Assembly (NCBI GenBank): GCA_021789895.1 | Contig: JAJYIU010000019.1 | Coordinates: 2,523-66,522, forward strand | From: Acidobacteriota bacterium | GTDB taxonomy: Bacteria > Acidobacteriota > Terriglobia > Terriglobales > SCQP01 | Direction of reading: 5' to 3' | Length of the DNA: 64,000 bases | Shown: one piece after another, positions 479 through 8,828 of the stretch | Layout: each line of letters begins with the position of its first letter | Numbering within the stretch: position 1 is the first letter of the stretch | Notes under the pieces: generated by a model | Database searches by the model: none | The model's input: the letters and a program-made list of their open reading frames with translations, nothing else | What the model was told of the DNA's origin: nothing | Translations under genes and position numbers: made by a program

Positions 479-2260
479 TCAGCGGCTGTACTGCACCGCA
501 TATTGTCCCAGGCGCCAGACCTGGCGGCCGCCGACATAGGTCGCCAGCACGCGCACGTTCCAAATCTGCCGGGGCGGAATGTGGAAGAGGTTGTGGTCGA
601 GAATGATGAAATCGGCGTCCTTGCCGGGAGTGAGCGAGCCCAGCCGTTTTTCCTCGAAGCCGGCGTAGGCCGAGCCCATGGTGTAGTCGTAAATAGCCTG
701 TGCCAGCGGAATTTTCTGGCGCGGGAACCAGCCGTTGGGGTGCTTGCCATCGAGCGTGGCGCGGGTGACGGCGGCATAGATGCCATAGAGCGGATTCAGC
801 GGCGCCACCGGCCAGTCGGTGCCGAATGCCAGCCGGGCGCCGTGCCGCATCAGGCTTCCGTACGCATAGCTGGTTTTAGCGCGCTCGTAGCCGATGCGCT
901 TTTCCACCCAGCGGCCGTCGTCAATCGCGTGGTATGGCTGGACCGAGGCGATGACGTGCAGTTGGGCAAAGCGCGGGATATCGGCAGCGATCAGATGCTG
1001 GGCGTGCTCGATGCGGAAGCGGCGGTCCTTAGACCCGTCCAGGCGCTCCACCTTCTGGAAAAAGTCGAGCACCATGTGGTTGGCCGCATCGCCGATGGCG
1101 TGGACGCAGACCTGCAATCCGGCGCGGTCGGCCCCCAAAATACGGCGGTAGAGCTTGGCCGGCGGCTGCGCGTCCGGGGCCAGCAGGCCGCGCCAGTTCG
1201 GATTGGAGGGCGGATTATCGCGATAGGGCTGGAACAGATACGCCGTGCGCGAGCCGATGGCGCCGTCGGCGAAGGCCTTCATCGAGCCCACGGTAATCCA
1301 GGGCCCGCCAAAGCCGCGGCGCACGCCCATGGCCGCCCAGTGCCGCCAGAGCGCGAGCGGCTGGCGCACGTAAAAGCGCGCGGTCAGCTCGCGGCGGGCG
1401 AGCAGCCGGGCATAGATACGGGGCGCCTGGGGATAGGACAGGTCCATGGATTGAATCGTGGTCACGCCCAGGGCGGCGGCATGGCGCAGGCCAATGCGCG
1501 CGATGCGCATGCGCTCGGCCAACGATGGCGAAGGAATGACGCGCGCCACCAGGTCCTGGGCGGCGTCCTTGACAATGCCGGTGGGCCGTCCTTGCGCGTC
1601 ATGGACGATGACGCCGCCTTTGGGGGTGGGCGTGGCGCGGCTGATATGCGCCAGCTTCAGCGCCAGCGAGTTGGCCAGTCCCATATGGCCGTCGTAACGG
1701 TTGACATACACCGGATGGCGCCGGGTGCAGCCGTCAATCATCCAGCGCGTCGGCCAGCGCGCCGGCTGCCAGCGTTGCTCGTCCCAGTTGCCGCCGGTGA
1801 TCCACTCGCCCGGTGGGAGGGTGCGGGCGTAGGCGCAGATCTTGCGGGCGAATTCGGCCGCGGAGCGGGTGATGCGGAGATCCACCGAGCTGAGATCGTA
1901 GGCGCCGGCGAAAAAATGCACATGGCCGTCAATAAAGCCGGGCAGCACCAGGCGCCCGTGGGCATTGACGATGCGCGTGCGCGGACCGATCCAGGGGCGG
2001 ATTTGGGCGTCGCTGCCCACCGCCAGGATGCGTCCATGCCAGATGGCCATTGCCTGCGCCCGCGGCCGCCGGGCATCCATGGTGCGCAGATGCCCGTGCA
2101 GCACGACTTCATCGGCCGCCGGCCGGCCGAGCGGCGAAAACAATCCGGCGCTGGGCCGCCGCGCGGGGCGCTGCGCCGCCGCGCCGGCCGCCGGCAGAAG
2201 GCTGGCTAACAGGAAACAGCAGAGCGAGTGCGGGCGAATGCGTAGCCGCTCGAAACCCAT
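479..2260 (-). CDS. Amidohydrolase-3 family metal-dependent hydrolase with signal peptide
   Basis: ORF 479..2332. Motifs PGFIDGHVHF, VHAIGDAAN, FGTDWPVAPLNP. Start moved to ATG 2260 (MGFERLRIRPHSLCCFLLASLLPAAGAAAQ), which gives a signal peptide. Confidence 0.85.
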   Translation of the reverse strand: MGFERLRIRPHSLCCFLLASLLPAAGAAAQRPARRPSAGLFSPLGRPAADEVVLHGHLRTMDARRPRAQAMAIWHGRILAVGSDAQIRPWIGPRTRIVNAHGRLVLPGFIDGHVHFFAGAYDLSSVDLRITRSAAEFARKICAYARTLPPGEWITGGNWDEQRWQPARWPTRWMIDGCTRRHPVYVNRYDGHMGLANSLALKLAHISRATPTPKGGVIVHDAQGRPTGIVKDAAQDLVARVIPSPSLAERMRIARIGLRHAAALGVTTIQSMDLSYPQAPRIYARLLARRELTARFYVRQPLALWRHWAAMGVRRGFGGPWITVGSMKAFADGAIGSRTAYLFQPYRDNPPSNPNWRGLLAPDAQPPAKLYRRILGADRAGLQVCVHAIGDAANHMVLDFFQKVERLDGSKDRRFRIEHAQHLIAADIPRFAQLHVIASVQPYHAIDDGRWVEKRIGYERAKTSYAYGSLMRHGARLAFGTDWPVAPLNPLYGIYAAVTRATLDGKHPNGWFPRQKIPLAQAIYDYTMGSAYAGFEEKRLGSLTPGKDADFIILDHNLFHIPPRQIWNVRVLATYVGGRQVWRLGQYAVQYSR

Positions 2261-2267
2261 GCCCGGC

Positions 2268-2276
2268 ACTATAGCA
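2268..2276 (-). promoter_or_regulatory. Extended -10 element TGCTATAGT, 7 nt upstream of ATG 2260 (possible leaderless transcript)
   Basis: Reverse complement of 2268..2276 is TGCTATAGT. Only 7 nt (gccgggc) separate it from the start codon. No convincing -35. Confidence 0.3.
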
Positions 2277-2442
2277 TTTTTAAATCGGCCGGCCGTGCTA
2301 TCTCGACGGAGGCAGCTAGCATGCGCCAACATAGCGCCGCCTGGCAGCGAACTGGCGCAAAGTCGCTCGTTCTAGCAGTGCAACCATTCGGTTCGCTATC
2401 GGAAGCCAATCTTGTGAGTTTAAACGGTTTAGCACGCGCCGC

Positions 2443-3699
2443 TTATTGCGGAGTATAGTATCTCACCTGTGGCTGAACAAAAAACGCCTGGTTAGCCGGC
2501 ACGATATTCACATGCGCCCCGATGTTGTTGATCAGCGGGTGAGCGCCATTGCCGTCCGGACGCACCGTGGCCACATGTCCATGCGGCTGGTGCGGTTGCA
2601 CGGCGATGACCAGCCGCCCCTGATTGGCCAGTTGCTGGGCTACCTGTGCATTCACTTCCCGGTAGCGATCGCTGGCGGCAAGCTGTACCGCAATATCGTC
2701 GGCCAGTGCGGGCGCTCCATGCTGCGTCAGCGGAGCCAGCGGCGCGCCCACGGCGCGGGCAATGCGATAGGTGGCTATATTACAAAAGGTTTCTCCGCCG
2801 TGAGGATGCAAAGCGGGGTCGTTGCGCGCCGCATCCTGGGCATTCATCAGATTGGCCACTGCCGGCGAAGGCGCCGGCGCGGATGCTGGTGCCGATGCCG
2901 GCGCGGACGCCGGCGCAGACGCCGGGGCAGAGGCGGGAGAGGAAGCTGGCGCGGAGGCGGGCGCGGCGGTCACGTCATATTGATATAAATCGCTTCCCTT
3001 CATGATGCGCTTGAGTTTGGCGCCGTAATTGGGATCGGTGGCATAGACTCCCGTCAACGCGTCGGCAAAGCCATCGGGGTTGTTTTCCAGGCTGCGGGCG
3101 CGCCCATAATAATGCGAAGTCGCCAGCAGCCGCCCATGCTGGTCGAACGCATCCGCCAGCGAGACAAATTTGCGGAAACGCGCCGTGATGGTAATCCATT
3201 GACCGTCTTTATATTCCCGGGTTTTGGTTTCGACGAACGGCTGCCCGCCCACGGCTTTGATTCCGAAAGGATTGTTGCTGCCCGCCGGCATGTGCCGCCC
3301 CCAGCCGCTCTCCAGCGCCCACTGGGCCAGGGTCACCGCCGCCGGAATCTGCCATTTCTTGTCCGCCGCCTGGGCGGCGCCAATGACATTCAACGGGACC
3401 GGTCCAACCCCGGCCGAGGGCATCGCGCCGGCCGATCTCGCCGGCGCTTCCCCGGCCAGATAGCGAAACGTGGGACCGGTCGGAACAATCCTTCCATCCG
3501 GATGGGGCATGCGCAAGCCGCGGCTTTGCACCGCGTCAATGGCGCCGATCGTCAATGGCCCGCAAAGCCCATCCAACACCAACGGCCGCAGCGGCACCGG
3601 CAGCTTGGCGTTGATCAACCGCTGCACCGTGAGTACGTCATCGTGCCGGTTGGCGCAATCGCGGCCGACAGAACCCGATATGCTGGCTGGATCCGGCAT
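2443..3699 (-). CDS. Multidomain peptidoglycan hydrolase: PG_binding_1-like domain, glucosaminidase (FlgJ-type) domain, (PAS)n linker, C-terminal putative Cys/His hydrolase domain; no signal peptide
   Basis: N-terminus VLTVQRLINAKL...LDGLCGPLTIGAIDAVQ (PG-binding-like). AQWALESGWGRHMPAGSNNPFGIKA (glucosaminidase motif). APASAPASSPASAPASAPASAPASAPASAPAPSP linker. C-terminus GETFCNIATYRIA ... HGHVATVRPDG (Cys...His pair). Confidence 0.8.
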   Translation of the reverse strand: MPDPASISGSVGRDCANRHDDVLTVQRLINAKLPVPLRPLVLDGLCGPLTIGAIDAVQSRGLRMPHPDGRIVPTGPTFRYLAGEAPARSAGAMPSAGVGPVPLNVIGAAQAADKKWQIPAAVTLAQWALESGWGRHMPAGSNNPFGIKAVGGQPFVETKTREYKDGQWITITARFRKFVSLADAFDQHGRLLATSHYYGRARSLENNPDGFADALTGVYATDPNYGAKLKRIMKGSDLYQYDVTAAPASAPASSPASAPASAPASAPASAPASAPAPSPAVANLMNAQDAARNDPALHPHGGETFCNIATYRIARAVGAPLAPLTQHGAPALADDIAVQLAASDRYREVNAQVAQQLANQGRLVIAVQPHQPHGHVATVRPDGNGAHPLINNIGAHVNIVPANQAFFVQPQVRYYTPQ

Positions 3700-3882
3700 A
3701 GATTTTCAATGCCCGGGCGGTTTAAAAAGCGCTATCCATGACTTGAGCTACGGCGGGCGGCAATCTGGCGCAGACACCACTTCCCGCACCCGGCGCCTTG
3801 CATCGCGGCTTGCAGATGCCCTGGATTGAGCGACGGCGCGTCGGCACCGCGGCGTCCGGGGTACTGCAACTTGGGCGACAGG

Positions 3883-4512
3883 TTAAGGCGTCGGCGTCGT
3901 GCTAAGTTGCTTTTGCGCTTTCTGCGTCAGCACCTTCACATCATCGTTGACGATCGTCTGGATGAGGGTCGCCTGCGATTGAATGATGTTCGTGAACAGG
4001 CTCAAGACCTGGCTCATCCCGCCCGGCATCTGGTCCTGCACCGCATGCACCGAAACCTGCATGCTGTAGGTGTCGTCAACAACGCTGCCAAACTGATAGG
4101 TGTTCTTATCCGTCACAGTCACCGATAAGCTGACGAACCAATTGGCCGAGGCCGAAGCGGTAATTGCAAAATCGTTGCTGAACGAATTAGAAGAGGTGCT
4201 ATGCAGTTGCACGTTAAAGTTGATGCTCATATCCTCGACCCGAATGTAAGGGATCGGGATGATGGTCAACAGCGGGACCTTGATCTCGGTATAATCCGAC
4301 AAGCCGCCTAAATTTTTATTCTGCAGCACCTGCGAAAAATCGAAGCTCACGGCCTGCAGCTTGGGCGGATTGTCCTTGGTAAACGCGAAACTCTGAATGA
4401 AGTTGGTGGTGGTGTTCGCCGCCATGGCTTGCGCGTTTACGACTGCAACCAGCGGACCTCCGATAATATCTTTAAAATCGAGTTGAGATAATTCTCTTCC
4501 CTGAGTTAGCAT
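3883..4512 (-). CDS. DUF2589-like protein (family name from memory; function unknown), Ser/Thr/Asn-rich, beta-rich
   Basis: 209 aa. N-terminal helix LSQLDFKDIIGGPLVAVVNAQAMAA, then VPLLTIIPIPYIRVEDMSINFNVQL. Strong SD (GGGAGGAAG) 6 nt upstream of the ATG. Many A/T-ending codons in a GC3-rich genome. Confidence 0.8.
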   Translation of the reverse strand: MLTQGRELSQLDFKDIIGGPLVAVVNAQAMAANTTTNFIQSFAFTKDNPPKLQAVSFDFSQVLQNKNLGGLSDYTEIKVPLLTIIPIPYIRVEDMSINFNVQLHSTSSNSFSNDFAITASASANWFVSLSVTVTDKNTYQFGSVVDDTYSMQVSVHAVQDQMPGGMSQVLSLFTNIIQSQATLIQTIVNDDVKVLTQKAQKQLSTTPTP

Positions 4513-4539
4513 GATCAGCTTCCTCCCTTCTCAGGCGCC

Positions 4540-4571
4540 TCTATAGCAACATACTTTCCCCTCACTGTCAA
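4540..4571 (-). promoter_or_regulatory. Putative sigma70-type promoter for the DUF2589-like gene: TTGACA ... TGcTATAGA
   Basis: Minus strand has TTGACA (4571..4566) and extended -10 TGCTATAGA (4548..4540). The spacer to TATAGA is 20 nt, which is long. Lies in the 100-bp gap after the TPR-GT stop. Confidence 0.3.
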
Positions 4572-4612
4572 GCAAGATAACACTCGAAATTCCAATGACT
4601 TAGATGCTGTAC

Positions 4613-6712
4613 TTACGAGGCGGAATTTTTTCGCCGCAGCCGTTCCTGCAACTCGCCGGCCATGGCGGCAAACACCGCCGGCCACTGGCGCGGGCCGGGC
4701 TGGCGAAACAGCCGCAGGGTGGGGTACCAGGGGGAATCCCGGCGATCGGCAAACCAACGCCAGTCTGGCGTGTAACTCACCGCCAGCCAGACCGGACGGC
4801 CCAACGCGCCGGCCAGGTGGGCGACGGCGGAATCACTGGTGACGATCAAGTCAAGATTCATCATCGCCGCCGCCTTTTCGGCAAACGGCAAGCCCAGGTC
4901 GACAAGGGGCCAATCCTGCGCCACCTCGGAGATTTGTTCGCGGCCATAGCCGGTTTGCAGGCTGAATAGCCGGACGCCAGCCAAGCGGGCCAAGGGCGCA
5001 AATTGGGCCAGCGGGATGGAGCGGATCCGGTCTCCTTTGAACTGCGGGTTGCCCTGCCAGGCCAGGCCGAGCTTGAAGCCGGGCTGCACGCCAAGCCGGG
5101 CTTTCCATTCCGCCACCCGGTCCGGATCGGGCCGCAGGTAAGGAACGGCGGCAGGGAGATTATCGAGGGTCGTTTCCAACAGCCCCGGCAGGTTCATCAG
5201 GGGGGCATGGTAATCGAACCAAGGCACGTTTTGCGTCTGGTCGAGCACCAGATCTACGCCCTGGCATCCGGCAAACAGTTTGCGCAAAGGGCCAGGACAC
5301 AGCAGCAGTACGCGCCCGGCGCGCAGTTTTAGCGGCGCTGCGAAGCGTACGAACTGGATGCTATCCCCGAAGCCCTGTTCCGCGTGGAGCAGGATGCAGC
5401 GGCCATGCAGGCTTTCGCCCTGCCAAAGCGGTTGGGGAAAACGGTCGGGTGAGACATCCTTGAAGCGCCAGCGCCATTCCCACTCTTTCCAGCCTTCGCT
5501 ATAGCGCCCCTGCAGCAGCAGATGCATGCCCAGATTGACGTGGATTTCGGCATTTCCGGGCTGAATTTCCAGGGCGCGGCGGAAACAATGCTCGGCGTCG
5601 GCGAGCGCCGGGCCGCGGCGCAGCAGCGCTTGAACATGCAAGACGCCGCCGAGATTGTTCCAGGCATCGAGAAAGTCGGGCTGGCGTTGCAGCGCGAAGC
5701 GGAGGTGCGATTCGGCCTCGTCGTAGCGCTCCTGCAGCAGCAAAGCGTGGCCCAGGTTGCAATGCGTCGCGGGACGCTCCGGAGCCAACTGCAGGGCGCG
5801 TTGCAGGCAGGCCAGCGATTCCTTCCAGCGGCGCCGATCGGAGAGGACGATGCCCAGCAGATCGAGCGCTTCCACGCAATCCGGCCGGCGGCGCAACACC
5901 GAGCGGAGACACGCTTCCGCCTCCGGCAAGCGCCGCAGTTCGCGAAGCGCCTTGGCGAGATTCAATTGCGCTGCGTTGAACTCCGGCGACAGCTCCAACG
6001 CCCGGCGGAAATAAGGCTCCGCCTGCGTGGTTTTACCCATCGCTTGCAACTGCGCGCCAAGATTGTTTTGGGCCTCGCAGGAATCCGGCTGCAACTCGGC
6101 CAGGCGCTGGAAATGGCGCAAGGCGGCTTCCGGACGGCCGAGCGTCCGCAGCAGATGGCTCATGCGGTCATGCGCTTCGGCGCAGTCGGGCTGCAATTCG
6201 AGCACCGACTGGTAGGCGGACAGCGCCGGCTCGGCGCGGCCCATCGAATCCAGGCATATCCCCAACCCCATCCAGGCCGGGACGAACCCGGGACGCAATT
6301 TTAGGGCGCGGCGATACACCGCCGCAGCGCGGCGCAGCATGCCGCGCTCGCGAAGCAGGTTGGCCAGGTTACAGTGCGCCTCTGCGAAATCGGCCTCGAG
6401 ACGAACCGCCTCGCGGTAGCAGGCGGCAGCGCGATCCACCTGTCCCAGCTTGCGATACACCACCCCCAAATCGTTGTGATAGCTGGCCACCCGGGACTGG
6501 AGTTGAATCGCGCGGCCAAGGAGCTGGACGGCGTTCTCGGGCGAGCCGAGTTGAGCGGCAATCAGCCCGAGTAGATGCAGCGCGGGGTGATTGCGCGGAT
6601 CCGCGGCTAAAATCTGCGCGCACAACTCGGCAGCCGGCTGCCAGCGCCCCGCCCGATGCAAGTGCACGGCCTGAGCCAAAAGCCCGTCTAAAGCTGTATC
6701 CATCGCCTCCAT
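4613..6712 (-). CDS. TPR-repeat protein fused to a GT9 (heptosyltransferase-type) glycosyltransferase domain
   Basis: ORF 4613..6964, start moved to MEAMDTALDG (ATG 6712) downstream of the Sel1 gene stop. About 400 aa of TPR repeats (AEAHCNLANLL, AEAHDRMSHLL, CEAQNNLGAQL ...). C-terminal GT9-like motifs EQGFGDSIQFVRF, LGLAWQGNPQFKGDRIRSIPL, VTSDSAVAHLAGALGRPVW. Confidence 0.8.
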   Translation of the reverse strand: MEAMDTALDGLLAQAVHLHRAGRWQPAAELCAQILAADPRNHPALHLLGLIAAQLGSPENAVQLLGRAIQLQSRVASYHNDLGVVYRKLGQVDRAAACYREAVRLEADFAEAHCNLANLLRERGMLRRAAAVYRRALKLRPGFVPAWMGLGICLDSMGRAEPALSAYQSVLELQPDCAEAHDRMSHLLRTLGRPEAALRHFQRLAELQPDSCEAQNNLGAQLQAMGKTTQAEPYFRRALELSPEFNAAQLNLAKALRELRRLPEAEACLRSVLRRRPDCVEALDLLGIVLSDRRRWKESLACLQRALQLAPERPATHCNLGHALLLQERYDEAESHLRFALQRQPDFLDAWNNLGGVLHVQALLRRGPALADAEHCFRRALEIQPGNAEIHVNLGMHLLLQGRYSEGWKEWEWRWRFKDVSPDRFPQPLWQGESLHGRCILLHAEQGFGDSIQFVRFAAPLKLRAGRVLLLCPGPLRKLFAGCQGVDLVLDQTQNVPWFDYHAPLMNLPGLLETTLDNLPAAVPYLRPDPDRVAEWKARLGVQPGFKLGLAWQGNPQFKGDRIRSIPLAQFAPLARLAGVRLFSLQTGYGREQISEVAQDWPLVDLGLPFAEKAAAMMNLDLIVTSDSAVAHLAGALGRPVWLAVSYTPDWRWFADRRDSPWYPTLRLFRQPGPRQWPAVFAAMAGELQERLRRKNSAS

Positions 6713-6795
6713 CCCGAAACGGCCGCTGATGGCTGCGGCGTTATCGCCAGCGCAGGAACCGCGGCGAGAAGGCGCCGGCCCGGCTGGCGTGCGTA

Positions 6796-8019
6796 TCAGG
6801 TCGCGTCCGCTCCCAAGCCGCTCTCTTGCAGCCGTTGGATGGCCAGGCTGGCATTCTGCGCCAGCGCGGCGCGCCGGGGATCGTTTTGGGTAAGCGCATA
6901 GCAGCGATGAAACCAAGCCAGGGCCTGCTGCCGGTCCGGCGCGGTGCCAAGGCCGTGGGCGCATTGGTAGCCCAGGTTATATTGCGCCTCGGCGCAATGC
7001 TGGCTCGCCGCCGCCTGATTCCAGCGCAAGGCGGCATCGTAGTCCTGCAACTCGTGAAGATAGATCTGGCCGAGCAGAAACTGCGCCTGCTGAGCTCCCT
7101 GCAACGCTGCTTTTTGCAGCCAGTACACCGCCTGCTGCAGATCGCGTTCCAGGCGCGACCCCTCGTATAGCACCGAGCCCAGCAGAATCTGCGCCTCAAG
7201 CAAACCTGCTTCCGCGGCGCGGCACATGCCATCCCGAAACTTCTCCGCATCCGGGGCGGCGCCCAGGCCCTGGGCATAGATCAAGCCAAGATAATAATCC
7301 GCTGGCGGATGGCCTTTCGCCGCGGCGCGTTCCAGCCACTCCCGGCTGCGGAGGGGGTCGGCGGCGACGCCCCGGCCCGACAGATAGCATTTGCCGAGCT
7401 CGAACTCAGCCAGCATGAAGCCTTCGCCGGCGGCTTGGGTCAGCCAATGAACCGCTTGCACCTCGTTGCGCTCGACGCCTTTACCCTGCAGATACAACAG
7501 CGCCAGCGAATATTGGGCTTCGCAGATACCCTTTTCCGCCGCCCGCCGATACCAGCGTTGGGCCTGGCCGAGATCCGCCTCCGTGCCGATTCCATCTTCG
7601 TAGAGCCGGCCCAGCGGGGCTGCCGCTTTCACGAAATCGTCTTCGGCGGCTGCGCGCAGCCATTGAAAAGCCTGCGCCTCGTCTTTTTCTACTCCCGTGC
7701 CGGAAAGCAGCAGCGAGGCCAGATTGATGCGCGCCTGCGGATGTCCGTGCTGCGCCGCGCGTTGATACCAAGCCGCAGCCTGAGTCAGATCCTGGGGCAG
7801 CGCCGCGCCGAATTGACTGCACTGGCCCAGCATAAACTCGGCCTCGCGCTCCCCGCCGGCCGCCGCCCGTTTCCACCAGCAGACGGCTTGGGCGCGATCC
7901 TCGGGTTCCGGCCCGCGGCTGAACAGCAGCAACCCCAGCGCGTATTGCGCCTTGGCATTGCCGGCTTCCGCGGCTTGCGCCAGTTGTTCCAGATCGTCGT
8001 GGTGCTCATTCGCGTTCAT
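6796..8019 (-). CDS. Sel1-like repeat (SLR) protein
   Basis: 407 aa with at least 8 SLR units (AQYALGLLLF, AEFMLGQC, AQYSLALLYLQGKGVERN, AEFELGKCYLSGRGV, ADYYLGLIYAQGLG, AQILLGSVLYEGSRLERD, AQFLLGQIY, AQYNLGYQCAHGLG). No signal peptide. Confidence 0.85.
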   Translation of the reverse strand: MNANEHHDDLEQLAQAAEAGNAKAQYALGLLLFSRGPEPEDRAQAVCWWKRAAAGGEREAEFMLGQCSQFGAALPQDLTQAAAWYQRAAQHGHPQARINLASLLLSGTGVEKDEAQAFQWLRAAAEDDFVKAAAPLGRLYEDGIGTEADLGQAQRWYRRAAEKGICEAQYSLALLYLQGKGVERNEVQAVHWLTQAAGEGFMLAEFELGKCYLSGRGVAADPLRSREWLERAAAKGHPPADYYLGLIYAQGLGAAPDAEKFRDGMCRAAEAGLLEAQILLGSVLYEGSRLERDLQQAVYWLQKAALQGAQQAQFLLGQIYLHELQDYDAALRWNQAAASQHCAEAQYNLGYQCAHGLGTAPDRQQALAWFHRCYALTQNDPRRAALAQNASLAIQRLQESGLGADAT

Positions 8020-8036
8020 GCGCTGCGATGGCCTTT

Positions 8037-8828
8037 TTAGCTTCCCAAGGTGTATATTTTCTGGCTATTTTTCTCACTCACGATCCACCGGAGATCGGAG
8101 GGATTGATGGTGATCTTGATCTTATTCAACAACGCGGTGTCCAGCTTTCCGAGATCCGCCGTACCCACAAGCACGTTCAGTGCCATCGGCGCCGGTGCGC
8201 CCGGCGCCTGCTGCGCTCCCTGCAGCGAGCGCAGCATTGCCGCGATCCTGGACTCGATCAGTTTTTGCAGGGGAACGGTCTCGGACTCCGGCTTCACCCC
8301 CTGCGCCAGCCAGAAGGGTGAGGGCTTTACCAGGAGGAGTAGCAGCGGGGCCACTGCCGGTTTCTGCTCCTCTGCGGCAGTTTCATAAAAGTAATTTTGT
8401 ACGCTCAAGGCAAGACTGTGCGCCAGGTCCACAGGATCGGATGCCGGCCGGGAAAGGATCTGCGCAAAACGCTGACTCATGCTTGCCAGGCCTGCCTTCC
8501 AGCGTGCCTGGAGCGGCGCATTCTGGCTGAAGTAATCTTTGAACTCCGGCTGGCTGGGAAAACTGCTCAGTAAATCCTGTAGTTGATAGGTAAGGTTTTT
8601 TTGCACTTCGTCATCTTCGAGGAATGAAGCCGATTCCAGCTTGGAAGCGACCCCGAAGTTCAACTCCATCTCGACGTCGCGCAACTGCATCCGCGGCACC
8701 GGAAAGCCTTTCAACAGCTCATTTTGCAAATAGCCTTCGGCAATGTGAACCGAGGCCCCGTCGCTCATCTGGCGCGCCATCGCCAGTTGTTGCATCAAGG
8801 CTCCGATAAAGGACTCGAGGGTGATCAT
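8037..8828 (-). CDS. DUF2589-like paralog (longer, 263 aa), function unknown
   Basis: N-terminus MITLESFIGALMQQLAMARQM ... GFPVPRMQLRDVEMELNFGV parallels the helix and PIPYIRVEDMSINFNV segment of 3883..4512. Lies 17 bp upstream of the Sel1 gene. Confidence 0.75.
   Translation of the reverse strand: MITLESFIGALMQQLAMARQMSDGASVHIAEGYLQNELLKGFPVPRMQLRDVEMELNFGVASKLESASFLEDDEVQKNLTYQLQDLLSSFPSQPEFKDYFSQNAPLQARWKAGLASMSQRFAQILSRPASDPVDLAHSLALSVQNYFYETAAEEQKPAVAPLLLLLVKPSPFWLAQGVKPESETVPLQKLIESRIAAMLRSLQGAQQAPGAPAPMALNVLVGTADLGKLDTALLNKIKITINPSDLRWIVSEKNSQKIYTLGS

Follow-up and report, generated by a model that had tools for sequence, protein, structure and literature searches.

A signal-less, three-module peptidoglycan hydrolase from an Acidobacteriota-like bacterium, a possible dual-activity antibacterial effector

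The 64-kb stretch of DNA analyzed here (the window) encodes, at positions 2443 to 3699 of the minus strand, a 418-amino-acid (aa) chimeric peptidoglycan hydrolase. The protein joins a PG_binding_1-like module, a FlgJ-type glycosidase domain of family GH73, and a C-terminal domain resembling the amidase toxin Tse1/Tae1 of Pseudomonas aeruginosa, and this architecture is a new combination of known kinds of toxin module. We propose that the hydrolase is a signal-less antibacterial effector that would cut peptidoglycan at two bonds and is likely delivered by a type VI secretion system (T6SS), a reading to which we assign a probability of roughly 55%. The proposal is made because the Tae1-like domain appears elsewhere as a toxin tip with its own immunity family, and because the PG-binding plus GH73 portion (PGB+GH73) is found in other genomes beside T6SS genes or with an immunity-like partner gene. 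The initial annotation had called the protein an effector or endolysin rather than a housekeeping autolysin. Comparative context supports that description, and from it we infer both the effector role and the delivery route.

The gene is complete and its product carries no recognizable export signal. In the list of open reading frames (ORFs), the coding sequence runs from an ATG at 3699 to a stop codon at 2445 to 2443, and its G+C content at third codon positions (GC3) is 0.71, a value typical of coding DNA. An in-frame TGA on the same strand (3706 to 3708) lies three codons 5' of the ATG and thus rules out a longer N terminus with a signal peptide. The N terminus as encoded is hydrophilic (MPDPASISGSVGRDCANRHDD...), and neither an N-terminal hydrophobic segment nor a twin-arginine motif was found in the 418 residues by hydropathy and inspection of the sequence. 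The sole hydrophobic peak, at residues 40 to 54, falls within a conserved domain, and the hydrophilic start is common to all 48 aligned orthologs. The initial claim that Sec and Tat signals are lacking therefore stands on hydropathy and the ortholog alignment, and neither a cryptic signal nor an upstream start, either of which could have overturned it, was found. An assembly chimera was also considered and rejected. Gene calls on three metagenome contigs give exactly the same 418-aa protein, and two of these contigs come from different datasets, so that the fusion is no assembly artifact; the source samples are ERZ27233565 and SRR13170411. The host is probably a member of the Acidobacteriota, since the neighboring housekeeping genes are 50 to 67% identical to, and partly syntenic with, those of Bryobacterales metagenome-assembled genomes.

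The C-terminal domain (residues 284 to 418; positions 2446 to 2850, minus strand) is, by predicted structure and family profile, a Tse1/Tae1-like amidase of papain fold. As a single sequence it had no match in Pfam, NCBIfam, or the PDB, and a word-indexed homolog search returned only six relatives. An exhaustive search with a profile built from those six, however, recovered 1,853 cluster representatives at an E value of ≤1e-3 and 580 at ≤1e-10, with clusters taken at 50% identity. The domain is full length and is 56 to 66% identical to intact toxin domains. Its AlphaFold2 model, built on a 72-sequence alignment, had a mean predicted local distance difference test (pLDDT) score of 97.6 and a predicted template modeling (pTM) score of 0.92. 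When the model was compared with the PDB by Foldseek, the 17 best hits were all P. aeruginosa Tse1/Tae1 (template modeling [TM] scores of 0.73 to 0.77; E values of 2e-6 to 7e-5), other papain-like toxins, CHAP domains, and NlpC/P60 proteins scored ≤0.5, and viral predicted structures gave no match at E ≤0.001. Of the three families initially suggested, the Tae type was retained. Membership in CHAP or classical NlpC/P60 was rejected, as there was no Pfam match and TM scores reached at most about 0.55 against solved or viral structures, versus 0.73 to 0.77 for Tse1.

The predicted active site points the same way as the fold. Tse1 is recovered at the sequence level too by the family profile (E value of 2.9e-6), whose alignment places Cys306 with Tse1 Cys30 and His375, in GHVATV, with Tse1 His91, in GHVAVV. 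Cys306 (FCNIA; codon at 2782 to 2784, minus strand) is nearly invariant in the family and is the predicted nucleophile; it is residue 27 of the domain and the first residue of helix 27-37 in the model. His375 (HGHVATV; codon at 2575 to 2577, minus strand), the predicted general base, is nearly invariant as GHVATV and stands at the start of strand 96-100. In Tse1, the active-site Cys30 likewise opens a helix and the His a strand, and the enzyme is a γ-D-Glu-meso-diaminopimelic acid (mDAP) amidase that remains cytosolic until T6SS export (PMC3391265). Thus, the C-terminal domain of approximately 130 residues with a Cys-His pair that had been noted from the sequence was located at residues 284 to 418, and its modeled fold is confidently enzymatic and papain-like rather than nonenzymatic. 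Of the Cys-His(-Asp) triad for which a test had initially been suggested, the Cys and the His were recovered, as the equivalents of the Tse1 dyad.

The relatives of the C-terminal domain suggest what it does. In the top 150 proteins, the domain ends 15 or fewer residues from the C terminus in 145 of 158 hits, and in multidomain members the Rhs core motif (...ARYY..GRF...NLY.Y..NNP....DP.G) lies directly upstream of it. Its Pfam partners include RHS repeats (14 proteins), the teneurin YD-shell, RHS, PAAR, SpvB, and T4 gp19, as well as SLT and the gp5/VgrG OB domain together with M23. A metagenome scan with a seven-sequence Tae1-like alignment yielded 13 loci. At loci L003 and L087 to L092, a gene for a 155- to 227-aa protein with a signal or lipoprotein peptide always lies directly 3' of the toxin gene. 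This partner follows Rhs-borne copies (L087 and L092), stand-alone copies (L003 and L089), and copies on other carriers (L088 and L091) alike, and is marked by the motif YDG.WWL...G(Y/F).(N/E)G..DC. Its genes lie at L087:1056-1703, L088:546-1196, L089:7477-7944, L091:1688-2344, and L092:3040-3723 and 4143-4763. Sequence searches of Pfam and the PDB returned nothing for the YDG.WWL family, which does not resemble Tsi1 in sequence either; we regard it as immunity-like and as the putative immunity partner of the Tae1-like domain. Judged by these neighbors, the Tae1-like domain behaves as a polymorphic-toxin tip, and the survey brings to light approximately 1,850 clusters of Tse1-like toxin domains that lack a Pfam model and have an unannotated immunity family of their own. 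We note that L092:1196-6947 has the layout of a polymorphic-toxin array, in which an Rhs protein with a Tae1-like tip and its immunity gene are followed by an orphan piece of the toxin C terminus (51 aa), a second immunity gene, and another Rhs C-terminal fragment with a downstream gene of its own.

The middle of the protein is a GH73 domain of the FlgJ type (residues 105 to 243; positions 2971 to 3387, minus strand), as had been read from the sequence. Pfam Glucosaminidase (PF01832) matches residues 108 to 235 with an E value of 2.2e-26 and 93.4 bits against a cutoff of 30.2. FlgJ/GH73 chains in the PDB match the hydrolase by sequence at E values down to 5.5e-17, and the PGB+GH73 family profile recovers the same chains at values down to 2.5e-25. 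Two predicted catalytic acids, Glu130 (ALESGWG; codon at 3310 to 3312) and Glu162 (TREYK; codon at 3214 to 3216), both on the minus strand, are invariant in 49 family members; the second is presumably the other GH73 acid, an assignment that we make from general knowledge of the family. The GH73 pattern of a Glu in (A/T)xE(S/T)GWG followed some 30 to 40 residues later by a second acidic residue is therefore present. The Glu130 motif aligns with AQAIVESGWG of PDB 7qfu and AQAALETGWG of FlgJ (PDB 2zyc). In a Pantoea agglomerans VgrG, the glutamate that matches the annotated FlgJ active-site residue is essential, as seen with an E752A substitution (PMC9796082). That residue would correspond to Glu130.

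The N-terminal module is more divergent. Residues 8 to 85 (positions 3445 to 3678, minus strand) were assigned as PG_binding_1-like by homology through orthologs to PF01471. Residues 1 to 105 of the hydrolase itself had no Pfam match, even at E ≤10, and the PGB+GH73 family profile found no PG_binding_1-containing chain in the PDB. By contrast, PF01471 is matched by 35 of 49 orthologs at E ≤1 (best value, 7.1e-6), the orthologs being 48 to 65% identical to the window protein, and one ortholog, P0053, has a precomputed match. We conclude from this transitive homology that the N-terminal 85 residues or so are, at the family level only, a divergent PG_binding_1 module; the initial assignment holds through the orthologs and not for the window copy taken by itself. 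Across the ortholog alignment the module reads SVGR.G.N...DV..VQ.LIN..LP.PL.PL.VDG.CG..TI.AI...Q.

Hundreds of proteins of approximately 240 aa match residues 1 to 240 of the hydrolase at 50 to 66% identity, and PGB+GH73 is thus a conserved two-domain family. Its contexts were surveyed at 80 genome loci from Acidobacteria, Acetobacteraceae, Sphingomonas, Janthinobacterium, and others. The gene adjoins TssM at 52 of the 80 and TssL at 44, and the IcmF and DotU+OmpA domains of the neighboring T6SS genes were confirmed by Pfam. In Acetobacteraceae and other Alphaproteobacteria, it stands directly before tssL (DotU+OmpA) and tssM (at L019:7938-13553 and 51 more loci among L007 to L086), and in Janthinobacterium it stands between VgrG-DUF6931-TagH and a signal-peptide-bearing, immunity-like gene. 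At 15 loci, a convergent gene immediately 3' encodes a signal-peptide protein of approximately 160 to 195 aa with the motif W..Y.N.RF.YSICYP..L..PQGE. This partner is present in nearly all of the closest relatives (L007 to L014 and L016), mainly Acidobacteria; examples, all on the minus strand, are L007:8712-9299, L009:8733-9308, L012:8728-9210, L016:8942-9430, and L068:8829-9347. The family has no Pfam match, and we take its members to be putative immunity proteins against the GH73 effector. A widespread family of approximately 240-aa proteins is thereby placed either in T6SS clusters or next to a second unannotated immunity-like family.

Between the GH73 and Tae1-like domains lies a low-complexity linker of repeated Pro, Ala, and Ser, (PAS)n, at residues 245 to 283 (positions 2851 to 2967, minus strand). 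Its sequence is AAPASAPASSPASAPASAPASAPASAPASAPAPSPAVAN, in agreement with the linker of approximately 38 residues first described, and the underlying DNA is a 12-nucleotide (nt) tandem repeat of 8.8 copies (2861 to 2966). The fusion that it spans is rare, as the Tae1-like domain is absent from the best 120 PGB+GH73 homologs and GH73 is absent from all 56 multidomain Tae1-like proteins. A sister protein, P0069, has a CHAP domain in the place of the Tae1-like domain, and other PGB+GH73 proteins bear different N-terminal or C-terminal extensions; hence, the PGB+GH73 module seems to be a platform for additions. We note that five family members (P0046, P0052, P0060, P0062, and P0064) carry an acidic N-terminal extension of approximately 200 aa with the motif DPYA.IR.AM.PEHA.L.ANE...LG..PA.LVLHQL and that a similar motif begins a 1,799-aa protein at L015:1822-7221. 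The extension may be an unrecognized trafficking domain.

How the three modules might act together follows from their families. The protein would be made in the cytoplasm and, lacking a Sec or Tat signal, would need a dedicated route other than Sec to enter a periplasm. The likeliest route is a T6SS encoded elsewhere in the genome that would carry the protein into neighboring cells, because PGB+GH73 proteins are T6SS linked elsewhere and the C-terminal domain has its closest known relative in Tse1; T6SS delivery is weakly suggested. In the target cell, the PG_binding_1-like module would hold the protein on the sacculus, GH73 would hydrolyze the glycan backbone by way of Glu130 and Glu162, and the Tae1-like cysteine amidase (Cys306 and His375) would cut the stem peptide, by homology with Tse1 most likely at the γ-D-Glu-mDAP bond. 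Together, the two activities could breach the wall and cause lysis. The chimera may have arisen by recombination of the approximately 240-aa PGB+GH73 effector family with a toxin cassette that normally tips Rhs, PAAR, and spike proteins, the slippage-prone (PAS)n linker joining the two parts.

Several observations weigh against this proposal. No T6SS gene was found in the window or in the approximately 2.5 kb of locus L001 that extends past the window start when TssL, TssM, VgrG, TagH, and PpkA were used as queries, and the hydrolase itself has no recognized T6SS targeting element such as PAAR or VgrG. Hidden Markov model and tblastn searches with both immunity families across all six frames of the window, L001, and L002 gave no match at E ≤10, and none of the neighboring genes resembles a periplasmic immunity protein. 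Among the nine longest Rhs proteins that bear the Tae1-like domain, seven begin with a signal-peptide-like segment, and so the domain often travels by Sec-dependent Rhs routes and not by a T6SS. The GH73 module (residues approximately 100 to 240) is 50 to 62% identical to proteins on 80 IMG/VR viral contigs. Finally, the GH73-tssL-tssM loci have no obvious immunity gene, and there the enzyme could be a hydrolase of machine assembly rather than an effector. The searches thus agree with the initial remark that no holin, immunity protein, or secretion apparatus lies nearby, and the absence of both immunity genes and a delivery system raises the question of how the protein is exported and how its producer tolerates it.

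A first alternative is that the hydrolase acts on its own cell, either opening the sacculus for an envelope-spanning machine such as a T6SS membrane complex or serving as an autolysin that is set free by regulated lysis. A position directly before tssL and tssM in 44 to 52 of 80 genomes, without an obvious immunity gene, is the position expected of a machine hydrolase, and the absence of an immunity gene from the window fits an enzyme that the cell tolerates. Moreover, bifunctional autolysins of GH73 and cysteine peptidase occur in Staphylococcus, and one of them (PDB 5T1Q) matches both halves of the protein. We nonetheless consider self-directed remodeling unlikely. The protein has neither a signal peptide nor a membrane anchor with which to reach its own periplasm, and the window has no machine for it to serve. 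The great majority of relatives of the C-terminal domain form the toxin tips of Rhs, PAAR, or spike proteins and are followed by a dedicated immunity gene, and the nearest PGB+GH73 relatives have a convergent periplasmic partner, as in effector-immunity pairs.

The viral matches raise a second alternative, that the hydrolase is a phage-derived lysin, whether an endolysin or a virion-associated remnant, that acts from within on the wall of its producer after release through a holin or membrane damage. Half of the viral GH73 relatives are single-domain lysins of 143 to 160 aa and half are the C termini of tape-measure-like proteins of 550 to 765 aa, and all PHROG matches of the hydrolase are to endolysin families. 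A signal-less modular architecture of PG-binding and catalytic domains is typical of endolysins from phages of Gram-negative bacteria, and one viral protein does combine GH73 with PG_binding_1. The GH73 module therefore probably shares ancestry with phage lysins. That the whole protein is a lysin seems improbable to us, however. Among GenBank phages, similarity is confined to the GH73 part and is ≤40% in identity, and viral matches scarcely ever extend into the N-terminal module. Viral contigs gave a single weak match to the Tae1-like domain, and no viral predicted structure matched it at E ≤0.001. No phage structural, holin, integrase, or terminase gene was found in the window or L001, in which the hydrolase gene is instead flanked by a gene for a 617-aa Amidohydro_3 protein downstream and by carAB and a cassette of DUF2589-type genes upstream, with ruvC, folE, and rpoN also present. 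The PGB+GH73 family, for its part, is found in T6SS clusters or beside immunity-like genes and not in prophages. The weak viral match to the Tae1-like domain (L099/L184; IMGVR_UViG_3300025943_000016; 43,976 bp) shows 34% identity over approximately 90 residues, and the contig appears to be AT rich, since its ORFs have a low codon GC. The matching protein could be a phage lysin of Tae1-like fold.

A further alternative is that the gene is an evolutionary relic, in which an orphan toxin cassette was accidentally fused to a GH73 gene, the immunity gene was displaced, and the product is unexpressed or without a role. The fusion is unique among the 120 best PGB+GH73 homologs and 56 multidomain Tae1-like proteins compared above, both expected immunity genes are missing from the window, and the junction is a slippage-prone tandem repeat. 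In addition, a scan of positions 2200 to 4700 found no promoter-like or terminator-like site on the coding strand. The reading frame is intact, however, and all four predicted catalytic residues are kept. The C-terminal domain remains full length and close to intact toxin domains, and recovery of the identical sequence on three contigs, two from different datasets, also speaks against a relic. We give the relic little credence.

The gene cassette upstream of the hydrolase deserves separate mention. It comprises four genes at 3883 to 8828 on the minus strand, which encode a 263-aa protein whose homologs weakly match Pfam AF_0414 (8037 to 8828), a 407-aa Sel1-repeat protein (6796 to 8019), a 696-aa TPR/GT9-like protein (4613 to 6703), and a 209-aa DUF2589 protein (3883 to 4512). 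Taken at its greatest length (783 aa; 4613 to 6964), the TPR reading frame overlaps the Sel1 gene by approximately 170 nt; the callers used on the source contigs start the gene at 6703, with no overlap. Homologs of the DUF2589, 263-aa, and 407-aa proteins occur together at eight of eight other loci in diverse bacteria, as judged by tblastn, and the TPR protein occurs at four of the eight. The 209-aa and 263-aa proteins share no similarity by BLASTP. The literature describes no function for DUF2589, whose AlphaFold model (pLDDT of 68) has long N- and C-terminal helices flanking a β-hairpin and has no fold match in the PDB.

The hydrolase might be cargo of this cassette, which would then be an uncharacterized module for the export, delivery, or control of signal-less toxins. 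The hydrolase gene lies 183 nt 3' of the cassette on the same strand, and its modules and the cassette have GC3 values (0.66 to 0.75 and 0.69 to 0.77, respectively) lower than those of carB (0.83) and the amidohydrolase gene (0.82), which suggests that the two form one accessory island. The cassette genes keep one another's company elsewhere, and DUF4157/"eCIS_core" toxin-like proteins lie beside the cassette in three of nine other contexts. A GH25 lysozyme is also present in one context, and in another M23 and PG_binding_1/SH3 proteins are encoded approximately 1 kb and 4.5 kb upstream. The association does not recur, however, as DUF2589 is found at none of the 80 PGB+GH73 loci and the hydrolase at none of the eight other cassette loci, and the remaining neighbors of the cassette are mixed (glycosyltransferase, lanthipeptide genes, and oxidases). 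Moreover, Pfam shows no membrane or secretion-related domain in any cassette protein, and the two DUF2589-type proteins have no PADLOC match. A functional or mobile-island link between hydrolase and cassette is weakly hinted at, and a role for the hydrolase as cargo seems to us rather improbable. Distinctly doubtful, in our view, is the stronger form of the idea, that the hydrolase is no T6SS substrate at all and the cassette, whose neighbors in other phyla include DUF4157 toxin-like proteins and lysozymes, is an unrecognized system that releases or delivers signal-less toxins. Were that the case, the producer could do without an immunity protein of the classical periplasmic kind.

We return to the proposed dual-activity effector and compare it with known systems. 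Tse1/Tae1 (PA1844) shares with the C-terminal domain a papain-like fold (NlpC/P60 superfamily) over the whole length and the same Cys-His dyad, and neither Tse1 nor the window hydrolase has a signal peptide. The two domains are, however, only approximately 19% identical. Tse1 is a stand-alone effector of 154 aa, whereas the window domain is the tip of a three-module protein, has no immunity homolog or T6SS gene in the window, and belongs to a family whose carriers are for the most part Rhs proteins, many of which have signal peptides. TseP of Aeromonas dhakensis is a chimeric T6SS effector with amidase and lysozyme activities (PMC11893102). Like the proposed effector, it combines peptide- and glycan-cleaving functions for interbacterial killing in one signal-less polypeptide, a functional resemblance rather than a demonstrated homology. 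TseP is described as amidase-lysozyme, and the order in the window protein is PG-binding, GH73, and Tae1-like cysteine amidase. The P. agglomerans VgrG ends in a FlgJ-type glucosaminidase that is an antibacterial T6SS toxin, and a signal-peptide immunity gene lies downstream (PMC9796082). The parallels are the invariant Glu130 of the PGB+GH73 family and the signal-peptide partner gene of its closest members; the window GH73, by contrast, is not fused to VgrG, has a PG-binding module and an extra amidase, and lacks an immunity gene.

Polymorphic toxins offer another parallel for the C-terminal domain, and both Tox-Glucosaminidase and Tox-NlpC/P60 were listed among them by Zhang et al. in 2012 (PMC3482391). 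Like the tips of Rhs/PAAR polymorphic toxins, the domain at homologous loci is terminal, comes after the Rhs core DPxG, precedes an immunity gene, and appears in orphan toxin/immunity arrays. The window carrier differs in that it is a second peptidoglycan hydrolase and not an Rhs, PAAR, or VgrG protein, and in that the next gene encodes an amidohydrolase and not an immunity protein. In the hydrolase, the toxin tip has thus been joined to another effector and not to a delivery scaffold.

Enzymes of Gram-positive bacteria and their phages can also be bifunctional. Firmicutes enzymes that combine GH73 with CHAP or amidase domains are Sec-exported housekeeping or phage enzymes. Staphylococcus aureus SAOUHSC_02979 (PDB 5T1Q) likewise pairs a glucosaminidase with a cysteine peptidase/amidase. 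It shows sequence similarity to the GH73 part and a weak fold similarity to the C-terminal model (TM score of 0.50). The window protein differs from this type in having no signal, a Gram-negative (Acidobacteriota-like) host, and a Tae1-like domain rather than CHAP. Phage GH73 lysins in IMG/VR resemble its catalytic module but lack the Tae1-like domain and, with few exceptions, the N-terminal module. Bifunctional peptidoglycan-degrading effectors are sought as antibacterial enzymes, and the window protein would extend their range with a new architecture (PG-binding, GH73, and Tae1-like) found in an uncultured soil lineage that is Acidobacteriota-like. Finally, we note that beyond window position 1, at L001:14427-15557 and approximately 1.2 kb past the end of the amidohydrolase gene, there is a gene for a HipA_2 kinase-like protein together with an ORF of 66 aa; they may constitute a toxin-antitoxin pair.

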